Assembly (NCBI GenBank): GCA_963845565.1
Contig: CAWJSJ010000001.1
Coordinates: forward strand, 288,001-352,000
Direction of reading: 5' to 3'
DNA from: an uncultured Methylomirabilota bacterium
Lineage (GTDB): Bacteria; Methylomirabilota; Methylomirabilia; Methylomirabilales; 2-02-FULL-66-22
Length of the DNA stretch: 64,000 nucleotides
The position numbers were made by a program, and so were the translations under genes. The stretch's first letter is position 1; each line of letters begins with the position of its first letter. Below are positions 2,492-42,971 of this stretch, in pieces. Below the pieces are notes generated by a model that was not told the DNA's origin, made no database searches, and was given only the letters and a program-made list of their open reading frames with translations.

Positions 2492-2643
2492 CTCCGACCG
2501 ATCGGAGCCCGCTCCGAGATCTCGTGCGGGTTTCGGCGGGGCGTCGCTCGCCGGTTGTTTTCCGCATCTCCTTCAACCCCTTGTTTCGACACGGCGCAGG
2601 CCGCGTCGCGGCCCAGGCCGGGCGCGCTGGATCAGGTTTTGCG
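2492..2643 (+). promoter_or_regulatory. Sigma-54 promoter unit P1
   Basis: CTCCGAccgaTCGGAG-cccg-CTCCGAgatcTCGTG at 2492; IHF-like CAAccccTTGTTT 2574-2586; TGGatcaggttttGC 2628-2642. Confidence 0.8.
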
Positions 2644-2813
2644 GACAAAGAGGCGGGCAGGCAATTCTACCTGATCCAAGGACATTCCCCCCAAGGGATC
2701 CACGGCGACAGTCCGAGGCAAGCCCACAGGACAACGGCGGGCCGGCCCGCGCCCGGCGATTTCGGTCACAGCCGCTGACGCCACGGGTGGCGGAGGCGCG
2801 AAGGAGAGACGAG

Positions 2814-2993
2814 ATGGGGGACGGAGCGATGGTGGGACGGCGAGTGCTCATTGTTGTGGATGCGATTCTGGCGAAACCGCGTCGACTGGCCGACCTGGAG
2901 GCGGTAATTGGCGGGTTGGCGCGGAGCCGTGCCGTGCGTCGTCCGTCCGGTGTCGCTGGGCGGCGAGACGACGATCCGGGGGCGATCGGCTAG
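2814..2993 (+). CDS. Small hypothetical protein (59 aa)
   Basis: AAGGAGAG RBS before ATG 2814; downstream of P1. Confidence 0.35.
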   Translation: MGDGAMVGRRVLIVVDAILAKPRRLADLEAVIGGLARSRAVRRPSGVAGRRDDDPGAIG

Positions 2994-3052
2994 GTCCCGT
3001 TCTGGTCTTTCGCTCAAGCAGGCCTCCGGTGCCTCCGCTGCGCCCCAGCCAC

Positions 3053-3203
3053 CTCCGACCCCTCGGAGCCGCTCCGAGATCTCGGGCGGTTTCCGCCCAC
3101 GCCGCCGCGGAGCTTTCCCGGCAGCCGCTCCGCTAACCCTCCGGTTCGTCAACGCAAAAACCGCGTCAGGCCCCGCGACCGGTGGGATGGATCTGTTGTT
3201 GCA
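3053..3203 (+). promoter_or_regulatory. Sigma-54 promoter unit P2
   Basis: CTCCGAccccTCGGAG-ccg-CTCCGAgatcTCGG at 3053; degenerate IHF-like site 3134-3146; TGGatctgttgttGCA 3188-3203. Confidence 0.8.
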
Positions 3204-3359
3204 TATCCAGGTGAACGAGAGGTGCACAGGATAAAGGGATACGGGCGGAGCGGGCGTGGGGAAGCGACACGCGCCCGGCTTTGGGTGCCCGGCCCGGCTG
3301 GAGGCCCTGGGGAGCACCACTCGGCGGATGGCGTCGCGCCATCGGGGAGGAAGGGCAAC

Positions 3360-3434
3360 ATGTATTCGATCGTCTACATCGTGGGCGCGGTCGTCATCCT
3401 GGGGGTGGTACTGCGATGGGCCGGGCTTTACTAG
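3360..3434 (+). CDS. 24-aa single-TM membrane peptide MYSIVYIVGAVVILGVVLRWAGLY
   Basis: GGAGGAAGGG RBS, hydrophobic helix, paralog at 12488. Confidence 0.7.
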   Translation: MYSIVYIVGAVVILGVVLRWAGLY

Positions 3435-3560
3435 GCCGGGCCACCGCACCACAGGCGCGTCTGCCCTGAACGTACCAGCACGACGGAACGCAACCGGCCG
3501 AGGCGCCCCGCAGCCGTCCAGGCGCGGGGGCCTCGGCCCAGACTGACAGGAGGAGAGACC

Positions 3561-4599
3561 ATGCAACGCAGAACGACCATTGCCGTCCTACTCGTGGGGT
3601 TGGGGGTGGCGCTGAGCCTCGGGCTGTTCGCGACCCCCGGATTCGCCGTCCAGGAGCACGGCAAGACGGCCGGCACGACCGCCACCGGGGAGATCACGGA
3701 CTCCTGGCTTACCCTCAAGACCAAGCTGGCCTTGCTGGCCGACGAACGGATCAGCAGCACCGAGGTGAGCGTGAAGACCGTGAAGGGCGTGATCACGCTG
3801 CACGGAAAGGTGGCCAGCGCGGAGGAACAGAAGGCCGCGGAGGAAGTGGCCCTCACGATCGAGGGACAGAAGCAGGTGGTCAACCAGTTGACGGTGGTGC
3901 CGCAGGCGGAACGAAAGGCCGTGGATCGCCAGGACGACCAGATCGTCACAGAGGTCGCAGCAGGGGCTCAAGAAGGATGCGGCCCTGAAGAAGACGGACA
4001 TTGCGGTGCGCGCCGAAAAGGGCATCGTCACCCTGACGGGGAAGGCGCCGTCCCTCGCGACGAGCGTCCGCGCGTCTGAGGTGGCCCGCCGGGTCGCCGG
4101 TGTGCGCGCCGTGCGGAACGAGCTGGCCCTCCCGGCCCGCGCGGCCGCCCCCACGGCCGGGGCCCGCCCCGCGCCGGGGATGCACACCCCGCGGGCCGCG
4201 ACGACCACCTCGCGCGTCGACCGCGTCGAGGACCGCATCACCATGCTGCATAGCACCCTCAACATCACGCCGGCCCAGGAAGCGCTCTGGACGAATGTCA
4301 CCCAGGTGATGCGGGACAATGCGAAAACCATGGATGCGCTCACCACGGCCCGGGTCGACCAGGCCAAGACCATGAACGCCGTGGAGGATCTCAAGTCCTA
4401 TACCGAGATCACCAAGGCCCATACCGAGGGCCTCACGAAATTCCTCCCCGCCTTCGAGGCGCTCTATGCCAGCATGTCGGACGCGCAGAAGGCCGAGGCG
4501 AATACCATGTTCCGCGGGCACCAGCGCCGCCCCACGGCGGCGAAGGCGCCGATGCCCAAGAGCCCCGCGATGGCGACGAACGCCGCGTCCGTGAAATAG
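3561..4599 (+). CDS. Secreted 2xBON-domain protein fused to a Spy/CpxP-like (LTXXQ) domain; frameshift near 3957
   Basis: Signal peptide; ITDSWLTLKTKLALLAD BON; second BON QGLKKDAALKKTDIAVRAEKGIVTLTG in the next frame; LNITPAQEALW...LYASMSDAQKAEAN. Confidence 0.8.
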
Positions 4600-4647
4600 G
4601 GCACCCGCCCACGCGCGCACGATGCGCGCCCAGAACGGAGGGTCAGC

Positions 4648-4989
4648 ATGAGAGCATCGACAGGACAGGTCACACGCCCGCGCGTCCGGACGCTCGGGCT
4701 GGCGCTCGCCGTCGCGGCGGTGCTGGTCGGGGGCGCCCTGGCGCCGGCGTTCAGCGCCGATTACAAGCAGCGCACTCGGCAACAGGAGCGCGACTGGCGG
4801 GCGCATCAAAGCTACCAGTGGACGCATCACCCCGCCCAGCGGGCGCATCCACGGTACCAGCGCGCGTATCCCGCCTATCGGTACTACGCGCCGCCCCCGG
4901 TGATGTACGCGCCGCCGCCGGTCGTCTACGCCCCGCTGCCGTCGCCGGGCATCAGCCTCTTCTTCGGCTTCCCCCTCGGGCATCGCTAG
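4648..4989 (+). CDS. Secreted Pro/Tyr-rich hypothetical protein
   Basis: GGAGG RBS, signal peptide, YYAPPPVMYAPPPVVYAP repeat. Confidence 0.7.
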   Translation: MRASTGQVTRPRVRTLGLALAVAAVLVGGALAPAFSADYKQRTRQQERDWRAHQSYQWTHHPAQRAHPRYQRAYPAYRYYAPPPVMYAPPPVVYAPLPSPGISLFFGFPLGHR

Positions 4990-5106
4990 GAGGCGCAGCG
5001 ACGGGCAACGGTTCGGTGCTCACGACCGCGCTCCTCGGAGCGGTCGTGAGCACTGCCGATCGACAGGAGAGGATGCGGCGATGGAGTACCAGAAAGGGGT
5101 AACGCC

Positions 5107-5703
5107 ATGAAAATGACACTGGGGGTCACCGCAGCGGTGCTGCTTGGGATGGGGTGCCTGGCGGGGCCCGCACAAGCCTTCCTCGTGGAAGGCGGCCGGT
5201 GCCCGAGTTGTGCCGGGTCGGTCTACGAACTGCCGCTCACCCCCTTTGGCGGGGCGGCGTTTCACGCATTGCTGTCGAGTGAGAAATATGGCTTCAGCAG
5301 CCCGAGTGCGTTTCTCCACCTCGGCGCCGGGTCCGTGATGGACACGACGGCCCTCGGGTCTGCCGAGCCTACGGACACCCTCGGTGGTCCCGGGAGCACG
5401 GGTGCAGCCGGTTCGAGCACTGCCCGGTGCGCCACGGGCGGGGGGAGCGGAGTGGGGTGCAACCCCGCCGACTTTCCCGGGGTCGTGCCGACGGGTCTCG
5501 ACCCGGCCCACCGCGGGTCCCCCTGGGCGGGCACGGAGTTCCCGCGGCCGGGCGGGCCGCGCCACCCCGGTCTGATCCCCGTCCATCCGGGCAGGGACAC
5601 GCCGGGCGCGGCCCCGGTCCCCGAACCCGCCACCCTGTTGCTTCTCGGGTCCGGTCTCGTGGGCCTGGGTGGCGTCGTATGGCGGCGGCACCGTCGCGCC
5701 TAG
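5107..5703 (+). CDS. PEP-CTERM sorting-domain protein
   Basis: Signal peptide; C-terminal VPEPATLLLLGSGLVGLGGVVWRRHRRA. Confidence 0.85.
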   Translation: MKMTLGVTAAVLLGMGCLAGPAQAFLVEGGRCPSCAGSVYELPLTPFGGAAFHALLSSEKYGFSSPSAFLHLGAGSVMDTTALGSAEPTDTLGGPGSTGAAGSSTARCATGGGSGVGCNPADFPGVVPTGLDPAHRGSPWAGTEFPRPGGPRHPGLIPVHPGRDTPGAAPVPEPATLLLLGSGLVGLGGVVWRRHRRA

Positions 5704-5822: not shown

Positions 5823-6944
5823 TCAGGCCATCGACCCGATGGTCCGGCGGAAACGCGCCAGCGCGATGGCGAAGAAGGCGGCGCCGATCAGGGCGATGGC
5901 GATGAATTGCGGCCACACCACCGCGAGACCGGCGCCGCGGAAGAGAATCCCCTGGGCGAGGATGACGAAATGGGTCGTCGGCGCCGCCAGCATCACCAGT
6001 TGGACAAATACGGGCATGCTCTCCCGTGGCGTTGAGCCGCCCGAGAGCATCTGCAGCGGCAACAGCACCAGCATCAGGAGCAGGCCGAACTGAGGCATCG
6101 AGCGCGCGATCGTTCCCATGAAGATCCCCATCGAGGTCGTGGCGAACAGATGCACCGCCGCTCCAGCCAGGAACAGCGCGAGCGCGCCTTCGATCCGCAC
6201 CCCGAGCAGTCCCTGCACGACACCGACCAGCGAACAGGCGCAGGCGCCGAGCACCACCAGCCCCATCGCCCACACTTTGCTCGTCATGATCTCCAAGGGG
6301 GTCACCGGCATCACCAGCAGATGCTCGACGGTGCCGTGCTCGCGCTCCCGGATCAGCGCGGCGCCGGTGAGCACGATCGACAGCATGGTGACCTCGTTGA
6401 TGACCTGCATCACGGCGCCGAACCAGGATTTGTTCAGCGTCGGGTTGAAGCGAACGCGCACGGCGAGATCAACCGGCGGAGCGGCCGGGGCGCGGTCGCG
6501 CCGCGTGAATGCCGCCACCTCGTCATTGATGATGATCTGGATATAACCGCTGCCGGTGAACGCCTGGCTCATGCGGGTCGCATCGACATTGAGCTGGATG
6601 GTGGGCGTGCGCCCGGCCAGCAGGTCGCGCTGAAACTCCGGGGGAATATCGAGGGCGAAGGTGTCGATCCCGGCGTCCATCCGCGCATCCATCTCGGCCT
6701 GGGTGATCATCGCCGGTGTGAGGAAATGCGGCGGATAGAAGGCGCTTCGGATGCGCGCCGACAGCGGAGACCGATCCTCGTCGACGATGCTGAGGGGGGC
6801 CTTGTTGAGCGTTTCCGGCATCGCCGTGGCTGCGGCGTAGACCGAAAAGGTGAAGGCGTAGACGATCAGCACCAGCATCATCGGATCCCGGGCCAGGCTG
6901 CGCAGCTCCTTGATGCCCAGACGCAGGACGTTGGCGGCACGCAT
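5823..6944 (-). CDS. yhhJ: ABC-2 permease (YhhJ-like)
   Basis: [40 protein letters not shown]. Confidence 0.85.
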
Positions 6945-6947
6945 GGC

Positions 6948-9733
6948 TCAGGTCTCCTGTTTCTTCAAGAACGCCGCGCACAGGCCGACCAGCACCGGTG
7001 GGGCAATCAGCAGCGGCACGAACGACGCGCTGCAGGTCGCTGAAGGCCAGGGCCTTGGAAAAGACGCCCTGCGAGATGAGGAGAAAATGGGTGGTGGGAT
7101 AGATGCGGCCGATGAGCGCGCCCACCCCTTCCAGCGACGACACCGGGTCGAGCATGCCGGAGAACTGCACGGCAGGAACGATGGTCAGGATCGCGGTGCC
7201 GAAGATGGCGGCGATCTGACTGCGCATGAAGGTGGAGATCAAGAGCCCCAGGGCGGTCGCGCAGGCCACGTACAGCAGTGCCGCCGTGATCAGGGTCGGA
7301 AAGCTCCCTTTCATCGGCACGCCGAACAGGGTGACCGCGAGCGCCGTCAGCAGCAGGAAGTTGAGCATCGCCAGCGCAACATAGGCGAGCTGCTTCCCGA
7401 GCAGGAACTCCAGGCGCGTGACGGGGGTGACATAGAGATTGACAATCGACCCGAGCTCCTTTTCACGCACCACCGAGAGGGCCGTCAGCATCGCCGGGAT
7501 CAGCATCAGCAGCAGCGGGATCACCGCCGGGACCATGGCCACCAGGCTCTTGACGTCCGGGTTGTAGCGGAAGCGCGTCTCGATGGTGACGAGGCCGGCC
7601 GCCCTGGCGTTGGCCGGATGCCCCGGCCAGCCATTGGGCATGCATGCCGCGCGCATACCCCTGCACGGTCTCGGCGCGCTGCGGCATGGCGCCGTCGACC
7701 CAGGCCCCGATCTCCACCGGACGGCCGCGGGCCAGATCGCGCGCGAAGCCGGAGGGGATCTCGATCGCCAAGCTGATCTCACCGGCGCGCATGCGCCGGT
7801 CGAGGTCGTCGTAATCGGCAATCGGCGCGTGTTCGATGAAGTAGCGGGAGCCGGAGAGGGTGAGCGCATATTCGCGGCTGGTCGTGGTCTGATCGCGGTC
7901 CAGCACCGCGAACGACAGGTCCTCCACGTCCATGCTGAGGCCGTACCCCATGATGAACATCAGGATGACCGTGCCCAGCAGCGCCAGGGTGGCGCGGATC
8001 GGATCGCGCCGCAGCTCCAGCGCCTCGCGCCGGGTGTAGCTGAACATGCGTCGGGGATTGAAGACCCCCTGCGAGTCCCGCCGGGGGTGATCGATCGTGG
8101 GCCCCGGCGCGGCGACGGACGGCGCCGGTTCATGGGGTCCGGGCCGCGCGTCCTCGGGCCGGCCCAGGGCGACCGCCTCTTCCAGATAGCCGATGAAGGC
8201 GTCCTCCAGCGTCTGCGCGCGGCGCCGCTCCCGTAACGCGGCCGGCGTGTCGGTGACCAGCACCCGGCCGGCATGCATCAGCGAGATCCGGTCGCAGCGC
8301 TCGGCTTCATTCATGAAGTGGGTGGAGATGAAGATCGTGACCTGGTCGCGGCGCGACAGCTCGATCATGATTCGCCAGAAGGCATCGCGCGCCACCGGAT
8401 CGACGCCCGAGGTCGGCTCGTCAAGAATCAGCATCTCCGGTTGATGGATCATGGCCACCGCCAGGGACAGGCGCTGACGTTGCCCCAGGGGCAATGCGTC
8501 GGGCAGGGCGTCGACGACGTTGGCGAGGTCGAAGCGCGCGACCATTTCGTCGATCCGGTCGGGGATCTTCCCAGCGGGCATCTGAAACAGCCGCGCGTGC
8601 AGATCGAGATTCTGGCGCACGGTCAACTCGGAATAGAGCGAGAATGCCTGCGACATGTACCCGACCCGTCGGCGGGTGTCGAGATCGTGCGGGTTCACGC
8701 CCTGGCCGAACAGCCACGCCTGCCCCTCACTGGCCGGCAGCAGGCCGGTGAGCATCTTCATGGTTGTCGTCTTGCCGCAGCCGTTGGAGCCGAGGAAGCC
8801 GAAGATCTCGCCCCGCGTGATCTGGAAACTCACATGATCGACGGCGACGAACGCACCGAAACGCATCGTCAGATCCCGCGCCTCGATCGCCACCTGCTGG
8901 TCATCTGTGGCGCGGGGTGGAATCTCCACTGCCCGGTAGCCCCGGCGCTTTCCCTCCGGCAGCAGGGCGACGAAGGCAGCCTCCAGCGAGGTGGTGGCGG
9001 TGCGCGCGAGGAGTGCCTGCGGGGTGCCGGCGGCGAGCACGCGGCCGGCGTCCATCGCCACCAGCCAGTCGAAGCGCGCGGCCTCCTCCATGTAGGCGGT
9101 TGCCACCAGCACGCTCATCCCGGACTGCGCGGCGCGGATGCGGGCGATCAGCTCCCAGAACTGACGGCGCGAGAGGGGATCGACGCCGGTGGTGGGTTCG
9201 TCGAGAATCAGCAGGTCCGGGTCGTGGATCAGCGCGCAGCACAGGCCGAGCTTCTGCTTCATGCCCCCGGACAGCTTGCCGGCGGGTCGGTCCGCGAAGG
9301 GGGCCAGACCGGTACTCCCCAGCAGGTCGGCGATCCGGCGCGTGCGCTCGGTGCGGCCGTGGCCAAACAGGCGGCCGAAGAAGTCGAGGTTCTCGAACAC
9401 CGAGAGTGTCGGATACAGGTTTTTGCCCAGGCCCTGCGGCATGTAGGCGATGCGCGGGCAGACGGCCCGGCGATGACGGGCATCGCGCATGTCGCCGCCC
9501 AGCACCTCGACCTGCCCGCTCTTGATCGCACGGGCGCCGGCGATGATGGCCAGGAGGCTGGACTTGCCGACGCCGTCCGGGCCGATCATTCCGACCATGC
9601 GGTCGGCCGGCAGCTCCAGCGTGACGGCATCCAGCGCGCGCGTCTTGCCGTAGCGCAGGCTGACGTCGCGCAATCGGGCCACCGGCATCGCGTCGGTCGC
9701 AGCCGGTGGGGCGGCGGGGGTGCCGCCGGTCAT
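6948..9733 (-). CDS. rbbA: RbbA-type double-ATPase/permease ABC protein; frameshifts near 7620 and 7030
   Basis: GPDGVGKS and GSNGCGKT Walker A motifs, LSGGMKQ, DEPT twice; permease [17 protein letters not shown] in another frame; ends LKKQET. Confidence 0.85.
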
Positions 9734-10815
9734 TGCGGAAGCTTCACGTGCAGCTCGGCAGGCCACGCCGCGCGGGAGTCGAGCCGGACATGTGCCATGC
9801 CGGGTAACCCGGTCTTGACCTTGGTGATGTTCTGCTTGAGGAGCTCGGGAGCGATCTGCGCCTTGACCCGGAACATCAGCTTCTCCCGCTCGCTGGCAGT
9901 CTCGACGGTCTTGGGGGTGAACTGGGCGACGTCGGCAACGAAGGAGACCTGCGCCGGGATGACGTACTGCGGCGCAGCATCGAGCACCAGCCGCGCCTCC
10001 GAACCGATGGCGACTCGACCCGCCGCAGCCGTGGGCAGGAAAAAGGTCATGTACACATCGCTCAGGTCGAGCAGGCTCAGCACCCTGCCGCCGGGCGCGA
10101 GCACCTCGCCGCGCTGGGCGACGCGATACTGCACGCGCCCATCGCGCGGCGCTTTGAGCACGCTGTCGTCGAGGTCCGCCTGGATGCGCTGGATGGTTGC
10201 CCGCGCCGCCTCGACGTCCGACTGCACCCCGATCGCCTGCGACCTGGCCGTGGCGATGGCCGCGTCCATTGCCGCGACCTGAGACTCCGCCGCAAGCAGG
10301 CCCGCCTCTGTGCCGAGGAAACCGGTGCGATCGTCGTCGAGCTGCTGCCTGGAAATCGCATTATCGGCGAACAGCGACTCTGCACGCGCCCGACGCCCTC
10401 TCGCCGCATCCACTTCCGACTTGCGCTGGATCACCACGGCCCGCGCGGCCGCCTTCTCGCTCTGTCGCTGGACCACCTGGCTGTGGGTGGTCTCGATGGC
10501 GTTTTCCGCCTGGCGCAACCGGGCCTGTGCCTCTCGCTGCTGGGCCTGCAATACGGCGGTGTCCATCTCCGCCAGCGGTTGCCCGGCGGTGACGAGATCG
10601 CCTTCGCTCACCAGAATGTCCTTGACCCGTCCCGCGGTCTTGGCGGCGATGTCGATCTCCACGGCTTCGATGCGGCCGTTGCCGGAGGCAAAGCCGCCGG
10701 GAAGCCCTTTGGGCCTCAAGGAGTGCCAGGCAAAGACGGCGGCTCCGATGCCAACCACCGCAATCAGGATCGCCGACAGCCAGTGCTTTCGTAATGTCAA
10801 CATTGCGACGTGCAC
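9730..10815 (-). CDS. HlyD-family membrane fusion protein (YhiI-like)
   Basis: [44 protein letters not shown]; stop overlaps the rbbA start. Confidence 0.9.
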
Positions 10816-10994
10816 GCTTGTACCCTCGCGGTGGCTGCGGTGTGCTTGGAGTCGAACCCCACGTCGGCCGGGACCTTCTGCGTCACGATCTTGATGACGG
10901 TACGCCATCCCGGCATGGCCCGCGTTCCGCTCCGCCATCACGGCGGTGCACGCATTCTCACGCCGTGATCGCTCGGTTCACCGGGGCACACGTC

Positions 10995-11288
10995 TCAGCG
11001 TCGAAGTGCTCCCACCGGGGAGACGCCTGCGGCGTCGCGATCTTTGCTGGGCTCATAGTCGGGTTTATGGCGTCGTTCTTGTGCTTGGAATTGGAGCAGG
11101 ATAGGCCCCCGTGGCTCCGTCCCCAGGCCCACCCGTCCTGCCGACCGTGCCCGATCCCACACCCGCTCGATCAGGAGGGCCAATCCCACGACGATCAGAC
11201 CCCAGAGCAACGTGATGACGAACCACTCGCCGATCCCCAACCCATAGCCGAAACCTCCCCACTCCATCGTTCCGCTTCCCGGCCGCAT
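10995..11288 (-). CDS. Small single-TM membrane protein
   Basis: AAGGAGG RBS; Gly-rich N-terminus then a TM helix; first gene after P3. Confidence 0.6.
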   Translation of the reverse strand: MRPGSGTMEWGGFGYGLGIGEWFVITLLWGLIVVGLALLIERVWDRARSAGRVGLGTEPRGPILLQFQAQERRHKPDYEPSKDRDAAGVSPVGALRR

Positions 11289-11380
11289 CGTGTGGACCTC
11301 CTTCCCATCAACGCGGTCGACATCCGCTACACACCGGCCCACGCCCTACCGCCCGGCATACTCCGTTCCCGCACACAATG

Positions 11381-11531
11381 TGCAAGGCCGGATCCAGCCA
11401 ACGCGGCGACCGGCACGCTGCGAGAACCGCCCATTGGAATCAAGCAGTTATGGGCGCTGAGGCCGAAGAGGCTCGGGCGCGAAACCTGCGGGAACGCTCC
11501 GAGATTTCGGAGACGCTCCGACCGATCGGAG
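11381..11531 (-). promoter_or_regulatory. Sigma-54 promoter unit P3
   Basis: Two CTCCGA-N4-TCGGAG palindromes 11497-11531; perfect IHF consensus AATCAAgcagTTA 11438-11450; minus-strand TGGatccggccttGCA 11396-11381. Confidence 0.85.
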
Positions 11532-11654: not shown

Positions 11655-11805
11655 CTCCATGTATCTCCGAACGTCCTCCGAGATGTCGGAGGTGTCCGGC
11701 CGGTTCCGCCGCGGAACCGCCGGGCCGTGTGCGACCCAAGTCTCTGATTCGAGGGGTGCCGAGTTCGTCTGGGAAGCGGAAGAGCGTGGTGGCCTTGCGC
11801 TTGCA
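11655..11805 (+). promoter_or_regulatory. Sigma-54 promoter unit P4 (divergent from P3)
   Basis: CTCCGAgatgTCGGAG 11676-11691 with a degenerate upstream half-site at 11655; IHF-like CAAgtctCTGATT 11737-11749; TGGccttgcgcttGCA 11790-11805. Confidence 0.75.
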
Positions 11806-11932
11806 CCAGTTCACAAGGGAACGGGCAGGGACCTCGGCGCGCATTCAGGTCGGGAACCGAGGCCCCGCGTGCCCATGGCCAGGGGCTTTCCCCTTCCGGG
11901 CTCACCCGACGACCAAGGATCAGGAGACAACC

Positions 11933-12435
11933 ATGGCGAGGAAAATGCGCAGATCAGGTGTCCCCACGTGGGAAGCCTCCAGGGGGACGGCACGACGGGG
12001 CGTCTGAGGCTGGAAGCGCTCTTGCGGGTGCGGCGGGGCGCGCTCGAACCGCCGAAGGCACCGGGCACCGCCAGCGCAGATCCGATCGATGCGGCCCAGG
12101 AGCGGGCGGAAGAGCGAACATGGCTCGCGATCGTGGAGCGCACCCGCGACATGCAGGCCATGGCGGACGAGGCGCTGGCCAGGCTGGACGCAGGGCGGTA
12201 TGGCGTGTGTGCAGAGTGTGAGGAGCCCATCCCGGCGCCCCGCCTCCGGGCGTTGCCATTCGCGGTGCGGTGCCTCCCGTGCCAGGAGCGCTGGGAACGG
12301 AGAGCCGAGGCGAGGAATGCCGCCGCCCCCCGCCCGGACGAGCACGCACTGAGATCGCTTCCGAGCAACCGGTGGTCGTCCGGCGAGTTCGCTCCCCCCC
12401 GAGAGGTGACCCGCTGGGCAGCCTACTCGGAGTAG
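11933..12435 (+). CDS. TraR/DksA C4-type zinc-finger protein; probable frameshift near 11985
   Basis: ADPIDAA, ALARLDAGRYGVCAECEEPIPAPRLRALPFAVRCLPCQ; the ATG 11933 with AGGAG RBS is in another frame across a G run. Confidence 0.8.
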
Positions 12436-12487
12436 CCGGGAAAAACCAAAAGTCGGATGGTGTCACGCCATCCGGGAAGGATGTCAC

Positions 12488-12598
12488 ATGAACTCCGTCC
12501 TCTACTTCGTGGGCGCCGTCGTCATCATTGCCGTGGTAGGTCGGTCTCTGCTTGGTCGGTCCGCCACGGCACCGATTTCCAGACGCGATCGATCCTAG
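12488..12598 (+). CDS. 36-aa membrane peptide, paralog of 3360-3434
   Basis: MNSVLYFVGAVVIIAVVGRSLLG...; GGAAGG RBS. Confidence 0.6.
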   Translation: MNSVLYFVGAVVIIAVVGRSLLGRSATAPISRRDRS

Positions 12599-21332: not shown

Positions 21333-21346
21333 CGGGTCACTCTAAT

Positions 21347-30500: not shown

Positions 30501-30840
30501 GGAATCGCTCCAGCATGCGGTGGCGATGCGGTGGGTAGGTCGGCACCGCGACGCAACCGGCGTATAGGCAGCCGAAGAGAGCCGTAATGAAGTCGAGGCC
30601 GGGCGGATAGACCAGCAGCACGAACTGGCCGACACAGCCCATGTCCTGCAAGTGAGCCGCGATGGCGCGGGCTCGCCGATCGAGCTGGGCGTAGGTCAGG
30701 CTGGCGTGATCGGCCTGGCCGTCGAGCAGATGGACACATGCCGGTTTCCGCGGTTGTTCGTCGGCGTGGCGGCGCAGCACGCGGATCAAGTGGCCGGGAA
30801 GCTGATGCGGATTGAGGTGAGCGTGGGTGTGAACCGACAT
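27495..30840 (-). CDS. Fatty acyl-AMP ligase - acyl carrier protein - PLP alpha-oxoamine synthase (SPT/AONS-like) fusion; +1 frameshift near 29275
   Basis: FAAL: YTSGSTDRPKGV, CYGLAEATL, insertion segment, FLRTGDLGF, PRTSSGK; ACP LGLDSL; AOS NFSVYDYVGL, AHNS, DDAHS, GTLSKS. Removing one base from an A run joins the two ORFs (HKERVDFAPVLDA). Confidence 0.9.
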
Positions 30841-31017
30841 GGTCAGGGGGATCTCCCAGAGGAATTTGACCCACGACCGGTGTGGGTCTTTACTTGTTTA
30901 TAACTGGGGCCGGGTGCGTTTTCAAGAACTTTCCCATCGCCCGGTCATGGCCATGATGGGGAAATGCGGGTTGATGGTGGTCAGAGTCACCGCGAAACCC
31001 GATTCTCGATTGAACCT

Positions 31018-31300
31018 CCGACCTCCAGCGTATTTTCGCGGCTGGCGCACCGACGCGCCACCACGGTGGGGTGAACACTGGGGCCAGGGCTGGGACCAGC
31101 GTCGCGCCGGATGGGACCGATGGGACCACCGCTCCGGTCCACGTGCCGCGCCGTTGCGCGGTCTACCAGCGACAGTATTCCGGGGACCGCTATCTTCAAC
31201 GAACGTCGACGCAACAACCACGTGCAACCGAACCAGCAACGGCAACAACAGGAACCCATGCAGCCGCCGCCGCAAATGCAACAGGCGATCTGGCTTTACC
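31018..31300 (+). pseudogene. Fragment of a Trp/Pro/Gln-rich hypothetical protein gene
   Basis: RPPAYFRGWRTDAPPRWGEHWGQGWDQRRAGWDRWD continues as YQRQYSGDRY in another frame; no clear 5' end. Confidence 0.45.
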
Positions 31301-32807: not shown

Positions 32808-33183
32808 GTCAACTCCTTCAAAGCGGATTCTGCTGACACCCATTCCGGCCGAGGCTCGGTGGCATCTGAACTGTCGCCGCGCCACGGCCCGCGCGGGGAG
32901 CTCCAGGATGGTCCAAAGCGTGCCGCACCTCGCCTCCGAGTGTCAAGGGGAATCACTCCCGGGGTTTCGCTGGGTGAACCGATCGATGCCCTTTTGGGGA
33001 GCCTCGTGCCGAGCGTGGACGTTTTCCCGTAGGCGCAGGAGGCCGACACCGGCGGCGCGAGCGCTCCTTGCCGTACCGTCTTCGTGTGTCGGCCGCCGCT
33101 GGCGTGCTCGACCTCACACTACTCCCCTCGAGTCCCACGTGAAGACGCTCGGGTCCCAATGCGCTCGCCGAAGACTGCTTCGC

Positions 33184-33334
33184 CTCCGACCGGTCGGAGC
33201 CTCTCCGATATTTCGGGCGTTTCCCGTCGGCGTCCCCGCTAGGATCCCCTTGCAGTTTCCACTTCAACCACTCGATTACACAGGGCTGATAACCATTCGA
33301 GTTCATCGAAGCGTGGTCTGGATCTGTTGTTGCA
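33184..33334 (+). promoter_or_regulatory. Sigma-54 promoter unit P5
   Basis: CTCCGAccggTCGGAG-cct-CTCCGAtattTCGG at 33184; IHF-like CAAccacTCGATT 33265-33277; TGGatctgttgttGCA 33319-33334, identical to P2. Confidence 0.85.
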
Positions 33335-33444
33335 TATACTCCTGAAAGGCATATGCACAGGTTGGATGAATAGCGGCTGATCTGGTCCGTGGATGCGCCA
33401 TTTGACCGGCCTCAGGCGCCCATTCCGGAAGGAGGATGCACAGA

Positions 33445-33720
33445 ATGGCGACGATTGTGGAGTACTCCGACCGGAAGCCGCCCGTGAATCGGTACCCCCA
33501 CCGCATCATCTCGCCTCCGCGGGCGGGCGCCTGTTGCTTCTCCGACATGGAAGAGGTCGGGAACCCCCAACAGGATGACCGCTGGATGTTCCAGTACCGG
33601 CGCTGTCGCCAGTGTGGCTTTGCCGTCCGGGTGATCCTCCGCGAACTCCCGGACACGGCCCTGGTGGCCAGCCTGCGCAAAGAGCTGGCTCACTCATTCG
33701 TGCGGAACGTCCCGGAGTGA
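33445..33720 (+). CDS. Small Cys-containing (CC...CxxC) hypothetical protein
   Basis: AAGGAGG RBS; GACCFSDM...RRCRQCGF. Confidence 0.7.
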   Translation: MATIVEYSDRKPPVNRYPHRIISPPRAGACCFSDMEEVGNPQQDDRWMFQYRRCRQCGFAVRVILRELPDTALVASLRKELAHSFVRNVPE

Positions 33721-33790
33721 CGCCCTGGCCCCCACGAGCGTCCGAGGGGTGGGGCGCAAAACTCCCGGGAGTTGCGGAAAGCGAGCGACG

Positions 33791-33991
33791 ATGGACGAGG
33801 AACGGGTGTGTTACCCGTACGAGCGCTATACGATCACGACGCTTCAGGACGAGGGCCAATGGTGGGCCAGGGCCCGCGTGGCGCTGAAGCAGGCCGGGGG
33901 CGATCGCGCGGTGCTGGGCGGTCCCTGGAAGAGTCGGTTGGACGCGAAAGCCGCCGCGGAAGCGTTCTGCGACAGCAAGAAGGCAGGGTAG
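33791..33991 (+). CDS. Small hypothetical protein (66 aa)
   Basis: Protein-like composition; stop overlaps the next GTG. Confidence 0.55.
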   Translation: MDEERVCYPYERYTITTLQDEGQWWARARVALKQAGGDRAVLGGPWKSRLDAKAAAEAFCDSKKAG

Positions 33992-34464
33992 TGCGACCGC
34001 CGTGGTGGCACCAGTGGTTCGGGAGCCGCGTTGCGGACAACGTAGACGCCTTGCAGAGGCTCTTGACCAAGATCTGTCGGCAAGAAACGGCGCTGGCCTG
34101 GCATCTGGCCGACCGGGCGCGCGCTGTGCGCTTCACCCCCCACCGGCTGAGCCTGGAGGGGTTGGCTGCGCGGGAGCGCCAGAACGCCCATGCGATGGCA
34201 CGCGAGATCGGGGGCGAGGCCACCCTGGCGCCGACTGCATCGCCCGCGCATCGCCCCGGATCGCTGACGGCCACCAAGCTCATCCAGGACTTGGTAGAGG
34301 TCGAAGACCTGTACACCCTGTACCGGCAGGCGCGTTGGCTGACGCCGGACACGATTCTCCGCGATACGCTGGAGGGGATGGCCGCGGAGGCGGATCACAG
34401 CTCGCAGACCATCCGCAGAATCCTTGGCACCATGGACAGCTACGTGACGGACCGTCCGGCATGA
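33991..34464 (+). CDS. Helical protein, possibly ferritin-like
   Basis: Four-helix pattern with ERQNAH and EADHS; GTG coupled to the upstream stop. Confidence 0.5.
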   Translation: MRPPWWHQWFGSRVADNVDALQRLLTKICRQETALAWHLADRARAVRFTPHRLSLEGLAARERQNAHAMAREIGGEATLAPTASPAHRPGSLTATKLIQDLVEVEDLYTLYRQARWLTPDTILRDTLEGMAAEADHSSQTIRRILGTMDSYVTDRPA

Positions 34465-34572
34465 GAAGGATCCGCTGGGCGACCTGAAGTAACCGTTCGC
34501 TTGGGGGCACGCGGCAGGAAGGCGCAGGCCCCTGAACGAATCAAGCGGTATCCCGGGAAGGAGGTACGCACC

Positions 34573-34836
34573 ATGGCCACGAAACAGCAACGCCCCACGG
34601 AAGAGGCCCGTCGGGGGCTCCAGCGCGGTAAGGACACGCGGGCCAACGCCGCGCAGGTGACCGCGGGCATCACGGAGGGGGACGTCGCGCGGCATAAGGA
34701 GTTCGATGCCCTCAGCGTCCCCAAGGGTGGTCGGATGGTGCGGAAGATGGCCGTGCCGGCGCGGCGGTACTGGCCAAGCGCGAACTCTCAACGCGCGCCC
34801 AGCCGACCTATGGGGACCAAGAAATCGCCCAGGTAA
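34573..34836 (+). CDS. Small basic hypothetical protein
   Basis: AAGGAGG RBS before ATG 34573. Confidence 0.55.
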
Positions 34837-34908
34837 CGACACTCGGCACACGGGTGCCGCAACGGATTCAACGATCGGCCTCTCCACTGCCGAAAGGAGC
34901 GAAGCGCG

Positions 34909-35199
34909 ATGAAGAAATTCAAGCCGTTGCAGGACCGGATCCTGGTCAAGCGCCTGGAGGAGAAAGAGACCAAGAAGGGCGGCATCATCATCCCGGATAC
35001 CGCCAAGGAGAAGCCGCAGGAAGGCGAAGTCATCGCCGTGGGCCCGGGCAAGGTGACGGACGACGGGAAGTTGCAGCCGATGGGGGTGAAGGTGGGCGAC
35101 AAGATCCTCTTCGGGAAGTACTCGGGGAGCGAAGTGAAGCTGGACGATGCGGAGTACCTGATCATGCGCGAGGAGGACGTCCTCGGCATTCTGCAGTAA
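34909..35199 (+). CDS. groES: Co-chaperonin GroES
   Basis: [34 protein letters not shown]. Confidence 0.98.
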
Positions 35200-36894
<1,695 letters not shown>

Positions 36895-36897
<3 letters not shown>

Positions 36898-37027: not shown

Positions 37028-37067
37028 CGGCTTGGCATCCCGGCGAATCTTCCGGGATGCCAAGCCG
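37028..37067. other. Perfect 16-bp inverted repeat
   Basis: CGGCTTGGCATCCCGG-N8-CCGGGATGCCAAGCCG. Confidence 0.8.
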
Positions 37068-37125
37068 CATCCCATCGGGAGACGCGATTTTGCCCGATGG
37101 GCACTCCGAGCGAACGAGGTCGAAA

Positions 37126-37452
37126 ATGACCATGGTCATTTCCACCCTGCGGATTGTGACGGCGCCCCGATCCCGGGCCGAGGTCCTTCGGGCGCTCGCC
37201 GCGCAATTGGGGCCGACGCGTGTGCAGCCGGGCTGCCTTCGGTGTGATCTCTATCGCGATTTCGAGAATCAGGGGGCGATCACGCTGGTGGAGGAGTGGG
37301 AATCCCAAGCCGATCTGGATCTTCGCTTAAACTCCGAGGAATACCGCACCGTGCTGGCGGCGATGGAGCTAGCGCATGAGCAACCCGTGATTCATTTCGA
37401 CACGGTCACCAGACGCGGAGGCTTGGAGGTCGTCGTTGCAGCGAGGGCGTAA
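37126..37452 (+). CDS. ABM-domain (antibiotic biosynthesis monooxygenase family) protein
   Basis: TRVQPGCLRCDLYRD, LVEEWESQADL. Confidence 0.85.
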   Translation: MTMVISTLRIVTAPRSRAEVLRALAAQLGPTRVQPGCLRCDLYRDFENQGAITLVEEWESQADLDLRLNSEEYRTVLAAMELAHEQPVIHFDTVTRRGGLEVVVAARA

Positions 37453-38047: not shown

Positions 38048-38210
38048 GCACACGTCAGCGCGTCGTGTGTCTTCTTTGGTGAAGAGCGTCCAGGGCAGGC
38101 AGTGGATGGAAGTGCCACAACCAAGAGGGCCGCAAAGAGGAAGGTATGCAGCGCGACGCTCACCGGTCCTGCTGTCCGTCGACAGGGTGATCGTCTCGAA
38201 AGGAGGAACA

Positions 38211-38717
38211 ATGGCGACAACGGTTCGGCAGCGGGCCAAGGGGAAGGCCACCAAGTGGACGGGGTATCACCGGATCCTGTGGCCCACGGATTTCTCTCCG
38301 CTGGCGAAGGCGGCCCTTCCGCATGCGGTGGGGTTGGCGGGGGATGCGGGCGCGGAACTCATGGTGCTCCACGTGCTGCCGTCGCTCGCGGCGTATGCCG
38401 TGCCCGATCTCTCGGGCGCCCTCTCGGTTTCTCTCCAGCGAAAGACCCGGGACGCCGCCCAGAAGGAGCTTCACCGGCTCGAAACACAGGTCAAGGCATC
38501 CAACATTCGAGTGCAGACGATCTTGGCGGAGGGGGTCCCGTTCTTCCAGATCCTGCGAGCCGCCAAGCAGCTCCGGTGCGATCTGATCGTTCTGGCGACG
38601 CATGGGCGGACCGGGCTCGTACACGCCATTATGGGCAGCGTCGCAGAGAACGTGATCCGCCGCGCGCCCTGCGCGGTTCTCACCATACGTCCGCTGCGAT
38701 TCCGGCGCGCCTTGTAA
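38211..38717 (+). CDS. Universal stress protein
   Basis: RILWPTDFS, DLIVLATHGRTG...GSVAENVIRRAPCAVLTIR. Confidence 0.95.
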   Translation: MATTVRQRAKGKATKWTGYHRILWPTDFSPLAKAALPHAVGLAGDAGAELMVLHVLPSLAAYAVPDLSGALSVSLQRKTRDAAQKELHRLETQVKASNIRVQTILAEGVPFFQILRAAKQLRCDLIVLATHGRTGLVHAIMGSVAENVIRRAPCAVLTIRPLRFRRAL

Positions 38718-38934: not shown

Positions 38935-41344
38935 TCACGCGTCAGTCACCCGCTTCTGCTTGAACAACTTCACCCACTCAAACCAGAGAATGCTGACAAG
39001 GCCTCCCGCCAAGCAGATCGCTATGTCACCGGGGTGCAAGGTTGAAAAGTGAAACAAGTCACGCAAGAACGGAACGTATAGCACCAGACCGAGGAAGACC
39101 AGCGTGCCTCCAAGAACGAACCAGAGGGCCGGATTCGGAGTCCGCAGGGTGGACCAGATGGTGCGGGACCACGAGCGGTTGGCAAAGATCAGGCCCAAGT
39201 TGGCAACGACGAGCGTAGTGAAACTCAGTGCCGTGGCGTCCAGGGCGTCTCGCCAGCCTAACAGCGCGGACAGATACACTGCCATGACGATCAGCAGTAC
39301 GCTCGCACCTTGCAGCAGTCCCAGGCCAAGAAGCCGCCTGCCGAAGAGGGATTCCTTGGCGTTCCGCGGCGGTCGGCGCATCACGTCGGCTTCTTCCGGT
39401 TCGGCTTCAAACACGATGGAACAGGCGGGGTCGATCACGAGCTCAAGAAACAGGATATGCACCGGCAGAAGGGCCAGGGGCCAGCCGAACAGTACCGGGA
39501 TCAACGACATCCCGGCAATCGGCACATGGACCGCCACGATGTACGTCATCGCTTTTTGTAGGTGGTCGAATATCCGCCGACCCATGCGGACAGACCGGAC
39601 AATGGATGCGAAGTCGTCATCCAGGAGCACCAGGGAGGCGGCTTCACGGGCCACGTCCGTTCCTCGACCGCCCATCGCAATGCCGATGTGGGCCGCGTTC
39701 AGTGCGGGCGCGTCGTTCACTCCGTCGCCCGTCATGGCAACGACTTCGCCGACGGCTTTCAGGGCGTTCACCAGCCGCAACTTCTGCTCCGGAACCATCC
39801 GAGCAAAGACGTTACTCGTTCGCACGCGCTGTTGCAGTTCACGATCTTCGATCGCGTCCAGTTCGGGGCCGGTGATGATCTGCAGTGAGTGGTGTGATGC
39901 CCGCTTGACGAGCGATGCTCTGTGCCGTCGTCGGGTGATCGCCGGTAATCATGATCACCCGGATGCCTGCCGTGTAACACTCCTGCACGGCAGCGGGAAC
40001 CGTCGGGCGTACTGGGTCGGCCAAACCGACGAGGCCCAAGAACTCAAACGTGAAGTCGTGTTGCGCGCCCGGCAGATCCGCTTGCTTGAACACTCCCCGG
40101 GCGACCCCCAGCACTCGAAGTCCCTCCTGGGCCATCGTTGTCACTGTTTCGCGAAAGCGCCTGTGTTCGTTCGGGATTCAGATGGCACAGGTCTGCAACG
40201 GCCTCCGGCGCGCCTTTTGCCGCCAGAACGTAATCCCGACCGGTGGGCGACTTCCAAACGTGCGACATCGCGAGAAGCTCGGGAGACAAGGGGTATCCTC
40301 GTTCCAGCGTCCAGTCAGCGTGCAGGTGTTCGGTATGCGCGAGACGAGCATTGCCGAGGTCGTGGAACGCTTTCTCCATCGGGTCGAACGGGTCACGCTG
40401 ACTCGCCATGATGCCGAACTCGACGACCTCGTGGTAGGCCTCTGGCAACGGCTGCGCGGTGTGTTGCTCCACCTCAAGAGCCGCTCCGTCCACGACCACC
40501 TTGCGGATTGACATGCGGTTGACGGTAAGCGTGCCGGTCTTGTCCACACAGAGGACGGTGGCCGAGCCGAGCGTTTCGATCACCGGCACGCGACGAGCAG
40601 TACGTTCATTTTCGCCAAGCGCCAAGCACCCAGGGCGAGGAAGATGGTCAGGACGACGGGAAATTCTTCGGGTATCATCGCCATCGCCAAGGTGATCCCG
40701 GCCAGAAAACCGTTGAGCCAATCAGCACGAGTCAGACCGTAGAGAACGACCACGATGGCACACAAAGACAATCCGAGGACGGCCACCCGCCGCACGAGCC
40801 GTCCGACTTCCAGCTGTAACTGTGTGCCTTCAGGTTGCACCGTCTGCAGCGCCTTGCCAATGTTGCCCATTTCGGTCTGGATGCCGGTGGCCCGCACTCG
40901 AGCGATGCCCTGGCCCTGAACCACCAGCGTCCCGGAAAACACGAAGGGGAGATCGTCACCACCCGGATGGCTCATCTCCCGCACGCCGTCCCAGGCGACT
41001 TTTCTGACCGGCACGGATTCCCCGGTCAGCAGAGACTCATCGGTGGAAAGGCCATTGCACGAAATGACAACGGAATCTGCGGGAACCCGGTCGCCTTCAA
41101 CCAGAACGAGAATGTCGTCCGGGACGACATCCCGGCCGGCAATTCGCTTCCGTTCCCCGCCTCGAATAACGAGCGCCCGAGGACTGGAGAGGTCACGCAG
41201 GGCCTCCAGCGCCCGCTCCGTCTTTCGTTCTTGGTAGAGAGTGATTCCCAGCACCACGAAGACAAACCCGAGGAGCATTAAGGCTTCTTGCACGTCGCCC
41301 AGAAACAGGTAGACCGCACCGCAAGCCAGCAGCAGAAGAAACAT
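38935..41344 (-). pseudogene. Cation-transporting P-type ATPase (type II-like); N-terminally truncated, split over four ORFs
   Basis: [41 protein letters not shown] in successive frames; begins at the first TM helix. Confidence 0.8.
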
Positions 41345-41454
41345 CCTGCCTCCTCCGAGACCGCGTCCTGTTGGCGCAGTGCGGGGCCGTATTCACCCTG
41401 AACGCCGCGATACCCCGCTCCCAACGACATCCCCATGCGTGATCCGCGCCCCGC

Positions 41455-42651
41455 TCAGAAATGGAGGTGCACGCCCAAGCCGATGTACTCGATCTTCTGA
41501 TTATAGAACTGCCCGTCCGGGGAATAGCCATTGAAGTATTGCACCAGGACTTGCAGGTTGCGGCCGACGATCTGCAGGCTCTCGAACTGAACGCCCGCGC
41601 GCGCCGACAGGTCGGTTCGCCACCCATTCTCCTGGTGGTTCTGCACATCGACGGCGGCGACCGGTCGGATCCGCTCCCCCCAGAAGGTCAGGGGACTCCG
41701 GAACTCCACACCGGCTTGGGTGGCCCACGGCTTCAGGTCTGACGGGTCGCTCGCGACCAGCCCGCTGCCGCCGCCGTACACGCGGAACCCCAGGGGGAAA
41801 TCGTACGACACGAGGAGCCCCACACCCTCGTAGCTGAGGTTGACGCGCGCGACCTGGGTCCGGAGGAGAAACTCGTCACCCAGGTGCGAGCTCTGGTGAA
41901 AGAGGCGTCCGAGCACCGAAACATTCCCCGTCCGGTAGGCGGCCAGGGCGGCCACATAATAGTCCGCGTTGACGAGGTCCATCGACTCGGCGTCCAGATC
42001 GAAGATCGTAAACACCCCTGCCTGGATGCCAAACTCCAACCGCCCCGAACCCGGCGCGGCCATCCGGTAGATGGGAATGGTTTCCCCGAAGGTCGCGGCG
42101 GCCACGTTGCGCAGGGTCGTGTCGTTCGGGTAGTACTGGTAGCTGGCGGAGAAATGGGGCCACCGCGGATCGGCGAGGAGCGGGCCGAAGAGGCGGCCCT
42201 CCGGCAGCCAGCCGACCGGCAAGGGGTCCGCTGGGGACCCGCCGCGCCCCGACCCCCCCGCGCCGGCCGGGGATTGCCCGGCGATGTCGGCCGCCGTGGC
42301 CTTGGCACCGGTCGCGGCGTCTCCGACCACGACGTACAGGACCCCTGGGATGCGCGAGAGGCTCTGTACCACCTTCTCGCGATCGGCGCCGGAAAGATCC
42401 TCCGCGGTCAGGGTGACGCGGCCCTCCGTGACGCGCAGGGACGGGGCCCGCACATTGAATTCCCTCTCCAGCACGGCGGTCGCATATCCCGCGACAAAGG
42501 CGTCATCGGACGCCGCCGCCCAGCCATCCGACGCCGGGGATGCCAGCAAGAACAGCCCGAGCACGAATGTGCAGAACGTCGCCGACCATCGCACGCGCAT
42601 GAGCTGCAGGGGAATGATTCCACACGCACCGAGCCACCTCTCGCTTCTCAT
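41455..42651 (-). CDS. DUF1207-like outer-membrane/secreted protein
   Basis: Signal peptide; FGPLLADPRWPHFS, DLVNADY, HQSSHLGDEF, RVNLSYE, C-terminal LHF. Confidence 0.75.
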   Translation of the reverse strand: MRSERWLGACGIIPLQLMRVRWSATFCTFVLGLFLLASPASDGWAAASDDAFVAGYATAVLEREFNVRAPSLRVTEGRVTLTAEDLSGADREKVVQSLSRIPGVLYVVVGDAATGAKATAADIAGQSPAGAGGSGRGGSPADPLPVGWLPEGRLFGPLLADPRWPHFSASYQYYPNDTTLRNVAAATFGETIPIYRMAAPGSGRLEFGIQAGVFTIFDLDAESMDLVNADYYVAALAAYRTGNVSVLGRLFHQSSHLGDEFLLRTQVARVNLSYEGVGLLVSYDFPLGFRVYGGGSGLVASDPSDLKPWATQAGVEFRSPLTFWGERIRPVAAVDVQNHQENGWRTDLSARAGVQFESLQIVGRNLQVLVQYFNGYSPDGQFYNQKIEYIGLGVHLHF

Positions 42652-42820
42652 GGATACTTCCCTCCGTTTCGCGTTTGCTTCCAATGAAAGATCAAACAGC
42701 CGAAGGGCTGGGTCGCCACGAAAAGGACTGCGTAGGCTTCTGGGTCGGCGTTCACGCAGTCGGAGACCTTTGTGCGACAGCACGTGACTTCCGAAAAAGC
42801 TCCAGGGACACTCTTTCTTC

Positions 42821-42971
42821 TGCAACAAAAGATCCAGACGGCCCGTCGTGGAGCAGACTTGGTATGCATCCTTTAAAACCAACTGGTTAGCGAAGATATC
42901 TAGACAAACATTGCATTGTTTGGATCGGAAGGAACCGCACGAGATATCGGAGGGGCTCCGAGATTCTGGAG
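42821..42971 (-). promoter_or_regulatory. Sigma-54 promoter unit P6
   Basis: Minus-strand CTCCAGaatcTCGGAG-ccc-CTCCGAtatcTCGTG from 42971; IHF-like AACCAActggTTA 42877-42889; minus-strand TGGatcttttgttGCA 42836-42821. Confidence 0.85.

Follow-up and report, generated by a model that had tools for sequence, protein, structure and literature searches.

Does the sigma-54 activator gene near the start of this stretch of DNA command the promoter-like modules found around it, and what would such a regulon do? The stretch (hereafter the window) comprises 64,000 nt of an uncultured Methylomirabilota bacterium, positions 288001–352000 of contig C1 in a 5.36-Mb assembly of six contigs with 66% G+C. A preliminary description had reported six intergenic regions (P1 to P6) with tandem palindromes, a site resembling that of integration host factor (IHF), along with a TGG-N10-GC box. 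It had proposed that the protein encoded at 347–2479 drives from them a six-promoter stress/envelope regulon. We put at about three in four the probability that these regions are sigma-54 promoters of one fixed plan, predicted to be co-activated by this PAS-GAF protein, and that the regulon is likely a general stress response.

Six regions of the window carry one promoter module

All six regions contain tandem dyads, an IHF-like YAA-N6-GATT site and a −24/−12 box of the type TGGATC-N5-TTGC (Table 1). The boxes share TGG(A/C)(T/C)(C/T)-N5-TTGC, with TGGCCT in P4. The first C of the distal dyad precedes the T of TGG by 136 bp in P1 and by 135 bp in P2, P3, P5 and P6, the same values as in the preliminary description. 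As also described there, P4 combines a degenerate site at −135 (position 11655) with one clean palindrome (11676), and the IHF-like site is perfect in P3 and weak in P2. Its AAC was found at −53 or −52 in all six regions.

The palindrome CTCCGA-N4-TCGGAG, with at most one mismatch, occurs six times in the window (starts at 2492, 3053, 11497, 11516, 11676 and 33184), when 0.48 occurrences are expected, and none of 100 shuffles reached six. The P6 palindrome is a two-mismatch copy on the minus strand (42971–42956). The bare TGG-N10-GC pattern was rejected as evidence, because its 262 matches in the window vs. 236 expected are uninformative.

The module recurs 25 times in the genome at fixed distances

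A profile hidden Markov model was trained on 44 promoters of relatives only, with the promoters of this genome excluded. The search of the genome yielded 25 full-length matches (E 2e-39 to 1.7e-9). Among the 17 remaining matches, 13 were reverse-strand matches to palindromic dyads of the 25 modules themselves (E 8.5e-5 to 0.4), one was of the reverse-strand dyad type at E 3 beside the module at C2:978890, and three were at other loci (E 3.3–6.9). The earlier count of six promoters is thus too low, although the sites themselves are real: the genome has 25 modules, 19 of them outside the window, which holds a quarter of the set.

The set is concentrated in one island. Within 123 kb (C1:208–331 kb) we found 23 of the 25 modules; the other two lie on contig C2, at 978890 and ~1801190, the latter with CGG replacing TGG. 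All 19 genome matches to the strict pattern TCCGA-N4-TCG-N100-105-TGG-N8-TTGC fall in the island, and the 15 exact palindromes of the genome are all inside promoter modules of this type.

A lack of spacing correlation genome-wide had been named among the results that would speak against the regulon. When every dyad (≤2 mismatches) was paired with every box 90–200 bp away over the whole genome, 70 pairs were obtained. The distance was 133–136 bp in 22 of them and 114–116 bp in another 14, and at any other distance there were at most three pairs. From the T of the proximal TCCGA to the T of TGG, the 24 promoters measured have 115 bp in 14 cases, 114 bp in five and 113 bp in five. We show that the 25 modules keep their spacing within a tolerance of 3 bp. 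Some of the 1-bp differences in spacing could stem from indel errors of the long-read assembly.

The two dyads are 19 bp apart in 21 of the 24 promoters, and in 60 of 68 when those of relatives are included. The AAC of the IHF-like site is at −53 or −52 in 22 of 24. Alignment of the 68 promoters gave the consensus c.TCCGA....TCGGAG.c.CTCCGA.AT.TCGggcG.tTcCcgcC ... gc.Gcatc ... ccAACc...cGaTT..acaGggc.ga.acC.Cgtc ... TGGAtCtG.c.TTGCAt. In these boxes GG and GC are invariant, and TGG and TTGC near-invariant. Among the 19 regulon promoters matched by a TGG-N8-TTGC scan, 16 have ATC instead of CAC in the −24 flank.

The activator gene and the module occur in the same genomes

The protein encoded at 347–2479 matched the Pfam families Sigma54_activat (5.4e-69), AAA_lid_14, HTH_8 (4.5e-8), GAF_2 and PAS_4. 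It scored under every NCBIfam equivalog cut-off (NifA, 373.7 vs. 528.85; FhlA, 372.4 vs. 830; NorR, 355.5 vs. 476). It is the sole full-length sigma-54 activator encoded in C1:208–331 kb. The rpoN gene is single-copy (one Sigma54_DBD match, C1:500909, 206 bits), and no sigma-70 promoter match was found when the 745-bp gap in front of the activator gene was scanned.

We searched 66 genomes of the order and 251 genomes of a phylum sample for the composite pattern. Of the 20 congeneric species, seven have an orthologue of the activator at 69–91% identity (G002, G005, G006, G008, G009, G010 and G014), and elsewhere the best identity was ≤58%. The relatives bearing the module are exactly these seven, with 13 strict-pattern matches in G009, 9 in G005, 7 in G014, 4 in G006, 3 in G008, 2 in G010 and 1 in G002; activator and module are both absent in the other 13 congeners. 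In the phylum sample, both were found in the same 8 of 251 genomes. The other 243 genomes gave 15 scattered matches in 14 genomes, without the conserved inner elements. We read these as random, because a reversed control pattern gave a similar number (11 matches in 10 genomes).

P1 begins 12 bp past the activator stop codon. A module directly past the stop codon of the orthologue was also observed in G010, in G014 and, in three cases, in G005. The activator and the orthologues of G002, G006, G008, G010 and G014 have the recognition helix PTTLESR(L/I)KKLG in common, and three intact paralogues in this genome with a related helix differ from it. No exact dyad was found at 79 loci of distant activator homologues (~40–59% identity, other phyla), and the motif is therefore not traceable further.

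The proposal that 347–2479 drives the regulon is thereby supported indirectly, by its position as the sole island activator, the recurrence of the module at the stop codon and the co-occurrence of orthologue and module. The evidence for this predicted assignment is circumstantial but strong. An activator encoded elsewhere could bind the dyads of these sigma-54 promoters, 347–2479 being a mere neighbor: the genome has ~31 sigma-54 activators, a 58%-identical paralogue (C5:643627) has a similar recognition helix (RTTLQSRMKKLG), and another activator gene lies 4 kb upstream of the C2:978890 module. However, the helix of that C2 activator is unrelated, 23 of the 25 modules surround the gene at 347–2479, the module behind the orthologue stop codon is conserved, and over the 20 congeners only the orthologues of 347–2479 track the module. 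We consider control by another activator to be improbable.

Elements are kept while spacers have drifted

Between the promoters of this genome, the conserved columns are 82% identical and the spacer columns 36%, compared with 27% (standard deviation 6%) for shuffled spacers; only 1 of 276 pairs exceeds 70%. These values indicate that the modules are old, that their spacers have drifted, and that the elements and the distances between them were held. They suggest that selection, rather than recent copying, keeps the plan of the module.

The opposite view treats the 150-bp module as repeated DNA, a cassette that was duplicated or is mobile: its spacing would be due to common descent, and not all copies would be working promoters. 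Even the spacers are 75% identical in one pair (C1:224297 and P2), three promoters share leader sequence, and spacer identity is slightly over that of shuffled sequences. Duplication has also occurred within the island: C1:250070–251200 comprises a decayed duplicate of the activator 3′ end (AAA+ fragment), then a full module and BON/LTXXQ operon fragments near-identical to the P2 genes. Nevertheless, spacer identity is ≤63% in 275 of 276 pairs and <50% in 264, at a time when functional columns retain the identity given above. Each of the 25 copies examined faces an ORF (open reading frame) on the same strand, and the positions of the elements are kept across eight genomes in which the activators have diverged to ~70%. 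No terminal repeats or target duplications were noticed, although no formal test for them was made. A repeated element is very unlikely to account for the set.

Predicted mechanism and points against it

The reading that we favor is a fixed sigma-54 promoter plan under the activator of 347–2479. From the sequence we infer the occupants of the sites, the transcript starts and the inducing signal. Activator dimers would bind the two 16-bp dyads: a distal cTCCGA-N4-TCGGAG that begins 135 bp before the T of TGG and, 19 bp further on, a proximal CTCCGA-nATn-TCGkGCG that begins 116 bp before it. The dyad-bound dimers would nucleate an AAA+ hexamer, and an IHF-like protein would bend the DNA at cAAC-N5-GATT, 53 bp before the box. 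Once in contact with the closed sigma-54 holoenzyme at TGGATCTG-N3-TTGCAT, the hexamer would hydrolyze ATP to open the promoter. Until a signal arrives, the activator is predicted to be held off by its PAS and GAF domains.

Compared with the Escherichia coli IHF consensus (WATCAANNNNTTR, reverse strand), the IHF-like site keeps YAA and GATT and sits between enhancer and box. Perfect consensus matches were found at P3 and at C1:245503. Since YAA and GATT are kept and genes for IHF-alpha-like and IHF-beta-like proteins are present, IHF-type bending at the −53 site is likely.

Several observations weigh against this mechanism. The loop of the AAA+ domain reads GAYTGA, vs. the canonical GAFTGA; loop variants related to GAYTGA are reported to be tolerated or functional (PMC4641369). 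The −24 flank is TGGATC, vs. the canonical TGGCAC. At the IHF-like site, the TT of TTGATW is not conserved, and the IHF-alpha-like (104.8 vs. 111) and IHF-beta-like (109.2 vs. 115) proteins score just under their NCBIfam cut-offs. Additional conserved positions at −70 to −25 (GCnGCATC, GAGACCnCGTC) fall outside the three-element model; they could be the remainder of an IHF-sized footprint, or a further site. P1 lacks a convincing product and P4 a good distal dyad. Finally, co-occurrence among kin is not independent, and it could trace back to one event in which the whole island was gained or lost as a block.

The dyads might instead bind a separate, non-AAA+ dimeric regulator (a repressor or co-activator), and an activator in solution or at a different site, for example the −70 to −25 block, would then fire the sigma-54 promoters. 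This would find room for the unexplained positions in that block and agree with the ability of some sigma-54 activators to work without DNA binding, but we give it minimal weight. Tandem dyads ~110–135 bp upstream, with a putative bend site between them and the box, match the enhancer layout of textbooks; the activator retains a conserved Fis-type helix-turn-helix; and no other regulator gene was seen to track the module, only sigma-54 activators having been compared across genomes.

The genes behind the modules point to a general stress response

Outside the window, the genes observed downstream of modules encode further BON proteins, CsbD and then DnaK, PRC-barrel, an MltF-like transglycosylase, a GT20 trehalose-phosphate synthase, DUF3309, Ysc84, DUF302, a fatty-acid desaturase, DinB_2, an alpha/beta hydrolase, DUF948/YtxH, OmpA, dodecin, ABM, FtsH with a cold-shock protein, a CBS protein, an RNB nuclease, DedA, DUF6600, hemerythrin and a P-type ATPase. 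Signaling targets are also present there, namely a CheR-PAS protein with a hybrid kinase, and a receiver protein. The regulon has at least eight BON proteins, and LTXXQ and Usp proteins are present. In relatives, the families downstream of modules include DUF3309 (seven times), ABM (six), BON (four), CsbD, OmpA and LTXXQ.

The DnaK of the island is the second of two copies in the genome, and the P5 GroEL is one of three; the island copies therefore appear to be extra, stress-dedicated paralogues. Content of this type is controlled elsewhere by RpoS, SigB or EcfG. The regulon is likely the general stress programme of an uncultivated wetland bacterium. The label stress/envelope was right about stress but too narrow, as the set is broader than the envelope and four times larger than was proposed.

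The P2 operon (3238–5700) is covered by RNA-library contigs of three studies, which match the window at 90–99% identity, and there is little cover over 2734–3067. Cover starts at 3238 or 3245, ~25–30 nt past the predicted P2 start, although such contigs cannot define 5′ ends. This cover is a weak hint of expression. The P3 exporter (6074–8077) has almost no cover, which has no bearing on its expression.

Inside the island, at C1:263666, a canonical TGGCAC-N5-TTGC box without dyads just precedes genes for a FecR-like and a CHASE2-HD protein; this box may be part of another activator's regulon.

A kinase sensor module and KaiC-KaiB neighbors

Directly upstream of the activator gene (C1:280408–287602, just before the window) are genes for a CheB-CheR-PAS fusion, a hybrid histidine kinase, KaiC (721 bits vs. 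an equivalog cut-off of 408) and two KaiB proteins. Residues 46–212 of the activator (within the part encoded at 347–1000) are 94% identical (157/167) to residues 25–191 of the hybrid kinase, whose gene (C1:283271–284932) lies 3.4 kb upstream. It looks as if the coiled-coil/PAS sensor of the kinase was recently grafted onto a GAF-type activator, or was homogenized by gene conversion. Most orthologues are without this N-terminal module, and their matches begin near residue 203.

Linkage to KaiC as a general feature was rejected: the genes are adjacent only here and in G005, in G006 KaiC is elsewhere, and G009, G010 and G014 have weak matches only. Since most orthologues also lack the PAS module, the Kai link is local, an addition that lies outside the core system.

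We offer tentatively, with the odds somewhat against it, a wider reading. In part of one uncultivated genus, sigma-54 and one GAF-type activator would be in charge of the general stress response in place of a stress sigma factor, by way of a rigid 150-bp cassette before at least 25 operons in one island. In this genome the switch would be tied to the KaiC-KaiB kinase timer, as its activator acquired the PAS module of that kinase, and stress protection would then depend on an input shared with the timer, perhaps a rhythm of the day or of metabolism.

Operons and other features of the window

Coordinates are given in Table 1.

Table 1. Activator gene, promoter modules P1 to P6 and associated genes of the window. 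Elements are listed as they are met from the distal dyad to the box; E values of modules are from the profile search, and gene families are from Pfam.
Feature	Position	Strand	Elements or genes
Predicted cognate activator, 710 aa	347–2479	+	Coiled-coil/PAS, GAF, sigma-54 AAA+, Fis-type helix-turn-helix
P1 module	2492–2642	+	Distal dyad 2492–2507; proximal dyad 2512–2527; IHF-like site 2574–2586; box 2628–2642; E 3.3e-20
Doubtful 59-aa ORF, sole candidate P1 product	2814–2994	+	AAGGAG 7 nt before ATG
P2 module	3053–3202	+	Dyads 3053–3068, 3072–3087; IHF-like site 3134–3146; box 3188–3202; E 3.8e-32
P2 operon	3222–5703	+	Small membrane peptide ORF; BON 3561–4079; BON/LTXXQ 4006–4599; 113-aa protein; PEP-CTERM protein 5107–5703
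P3 module	11382–11531	−	Dyads 11516–11531, 11497–11512; IHF-like site 11438–11450 (perfect TAACTGCTTGATT); box 11382–11396 (T of TGG at 11396); E 1.1e-22
P3 operon	5823–11342	−	115-aa membrane protein; HlyD adaptor 9730–10941; fused double ABC ATPase-permease ~6945–9766 (apparently frameshifted); ABC-2 permease 5823–6944
P4 module (weakest)	11655–11804	+	Degenerate distal site 11655–11670; clean dyad 11676–11691; IHF-like site 11737–11749; box 11790–11804 (TGGCCT...TTGC); partial match without distal dyad, E 1.7e-9
P4 operon	11875–15750	+	DksA/TraR zinc-finger protein ~11875–12435; class A penicillin-binding protein 12552–14654; triple-BON protein 14980–15750
P5 module	33184–33333	+	Dyads 33184–33199, 33203–33218; IHF-like site 33265–33277; box 33319–33333; E 5.6e-36
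P5 operon	33436–36897	+	94-aa Cys-rich protein; two unknown proteins; GroES 34909–35199; GroEL 35260–36897
Genes past P5 operon		+	ABM 37057–37452; Usp 38067–38717
P6 module	42822–42971	−	Distal dyad 42956–42971 (2 mismatches); proximal dyad 42937–42952; IHF-like site 42877–42889; box 42822–42836 (T of TGG at 42836); E 4.4e-19
P6 gene, DUF1207	41455–42651	−	Pfam 5.5e-111; best start ATG 42651, GGAGG before it

A terminator-like hairpin with a T-run (2533–2554) stands in the P1 spacer, directly past the proximal dyad. It is possibly the terminator of the activator gene itself, embedded in P1. The 59-aa ORF behind P1 had no Pfam or NCBIfam match, and an Rfam scan of the whole window for an RNA product of P1 found no family.

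In the P2 operon, the BON/LTXXQ frame is apparently frameshifted from the BON frame before it; in G009 the two form one 352-aa gene. Apparent frameshifts split the BON-LTXXQ region (3561–4599), the ABC-ABC-permease gene (6523–9766) and two P-type ATPase genes (38935–41344; C1:276453–279208), and are compatible with indel errors of a long-read assembly. The P3 exporter (5823–10941, minus strand) has the HlyD, fused double-ATPase-permease and ABC-2 permease layout of E. coli yhiI-rbbA-yhhJ.

The first gene of the P5 operon (33436–33720) and the second gene behind the 25th promoter (C2:1800186–1800494) encode a Cys-rich family of 94–102 aa with the N-terminus MATIVEY.DRKP. No Pfam family was found for it, and the nearest protein-atlas clusters gave only weak zinc-ribbon leads.

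A cluster that is not behind a module (25431–32885, minus strand) encodes an AMP-binding enzyme, a fusion of carrier protein and class I-II aminotransferase, an ABC-2 exporter and a B12-binding radical SAM enzyme, and adjoins MlaD/E/F (22140–25207). It may act in lipid synthesis or export.

Significance and comparison with known systems

General stress responses are, to our knowledge, understood in few phyla only, and always through a dedicated factor of the sigma-70 family. The present data are sequence-level evidence that an uncultivated wetland or sediment lineage wires its protective genes to ATP-gated sigma-54, an arrangement that would make for a tight off-state and for induction that is all or none. 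The 68 aligned promoters amount to a natural mutagenesis series, in which the tolerated positions and distances of an enhancer, bend and promoter assembly can be read. The series should be useful for studies of sigma-54 mechanism and for the design of orthogonal sigma-54 switches. With one activator, one motif and 25 targets, the set is directly testable in E. coli.

In the full text of open papers (curated motif databases lying outside the search), CTCCGA/TCGGAG was described as a sigma-54 motif in none, and the sole text match concerned an unrelated AraC regulator. The literature search found no paper that pairs Rokubacteria with sigma-54. Among the papers listed, none links Methylomirabilota with sigma-54/RpoN, and nothing comparable appeared on a sigma-54 general stress response or on Kai with sigma-54. 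Sigma-54 promoters have been predicted before chaperone genes (groES/EL, dnaK) in Planctomycetota and Bacteroidota (PMC12316311). That work resembles ours in placing chaperones behind predicted −24/−12 promoters outside Proteobacteria; it differs in concerning other lineages, and in the part of it considered here no activator or enhancer is named. The idea is therefore not isolated.

PspF-controlled phage-shock promoters, which answer to stress of the envelope, combine sigma-54, IHF and an AAA+ activator as is predicted here, and some of the targets found here belong to the envelope (OmpA, PBP1A, LTXXQ, DUF1207 and the exporter). PspF, however, has no sensory domain and is controlled by PspA, whereas the activator of 347–2479 has PAS and GAF domains and its predicted regulon is far larger and extends beyond the envelope. 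No match to PspA_IM30 was found among 125 ORFs scanned (43 in the window and 82 outside).

In content, the closest systems are RpoS of Gammaproteobacteria, SigB of Bacillota and EcfG-NepR-PhyR of Alphaproteobacteria, in which one regulator likewise serves dozens of genes. BON/OsmY-like proteins, CsbD, YtxH, trehalose synthesis, Usp, small membrane stress proteins and chaperones are common to them and to the set described here. In contrast to these systems, the promoters here are of the sigma-54 type, not of a dedicated stress sigma of the sigma-70 family, the predicted activator is ATP-driven, and the regulon is clustered. A search of the genome found no RpoS or RpoH equivalog, only one 301-aa sigma factor of unclear type.

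In architecture, the module resembles the classical IHF-bent sigma-54 promoters (NifA at nifH, NtrC at glnHp2, XylR/DmpR at Pu/Po and OrpR of Desulfovibrio vulgaris). Common to these and to the module are the −24 GG and −12 GC, tandem dyads, an AAA+ activator with a Fis-type helix-turn-helix and, as predicted here, a bend about midway and restraint of the activator by N-terminal sensory domains (PAS, GAF). The mechanism predicted here is the textbook one of enhancer, bend and sigma-54 promoter. The differences are another dyad motif, an activator under the equivalog cut-offs, the TGGATC flank, the GAYTGA loop and the narrow tolerance over 25 promoters; in known sigma-54 regulons, enhancers lie at varied distances. 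What is new is (i) the activator subfamily and its predicted dyad motif; (ii) general-stress content behind sigma-54; (iii) 25 promoters within a 3-bp tolerance; (iv) their concentration in one island; and (v) their restriction to part of one genus.

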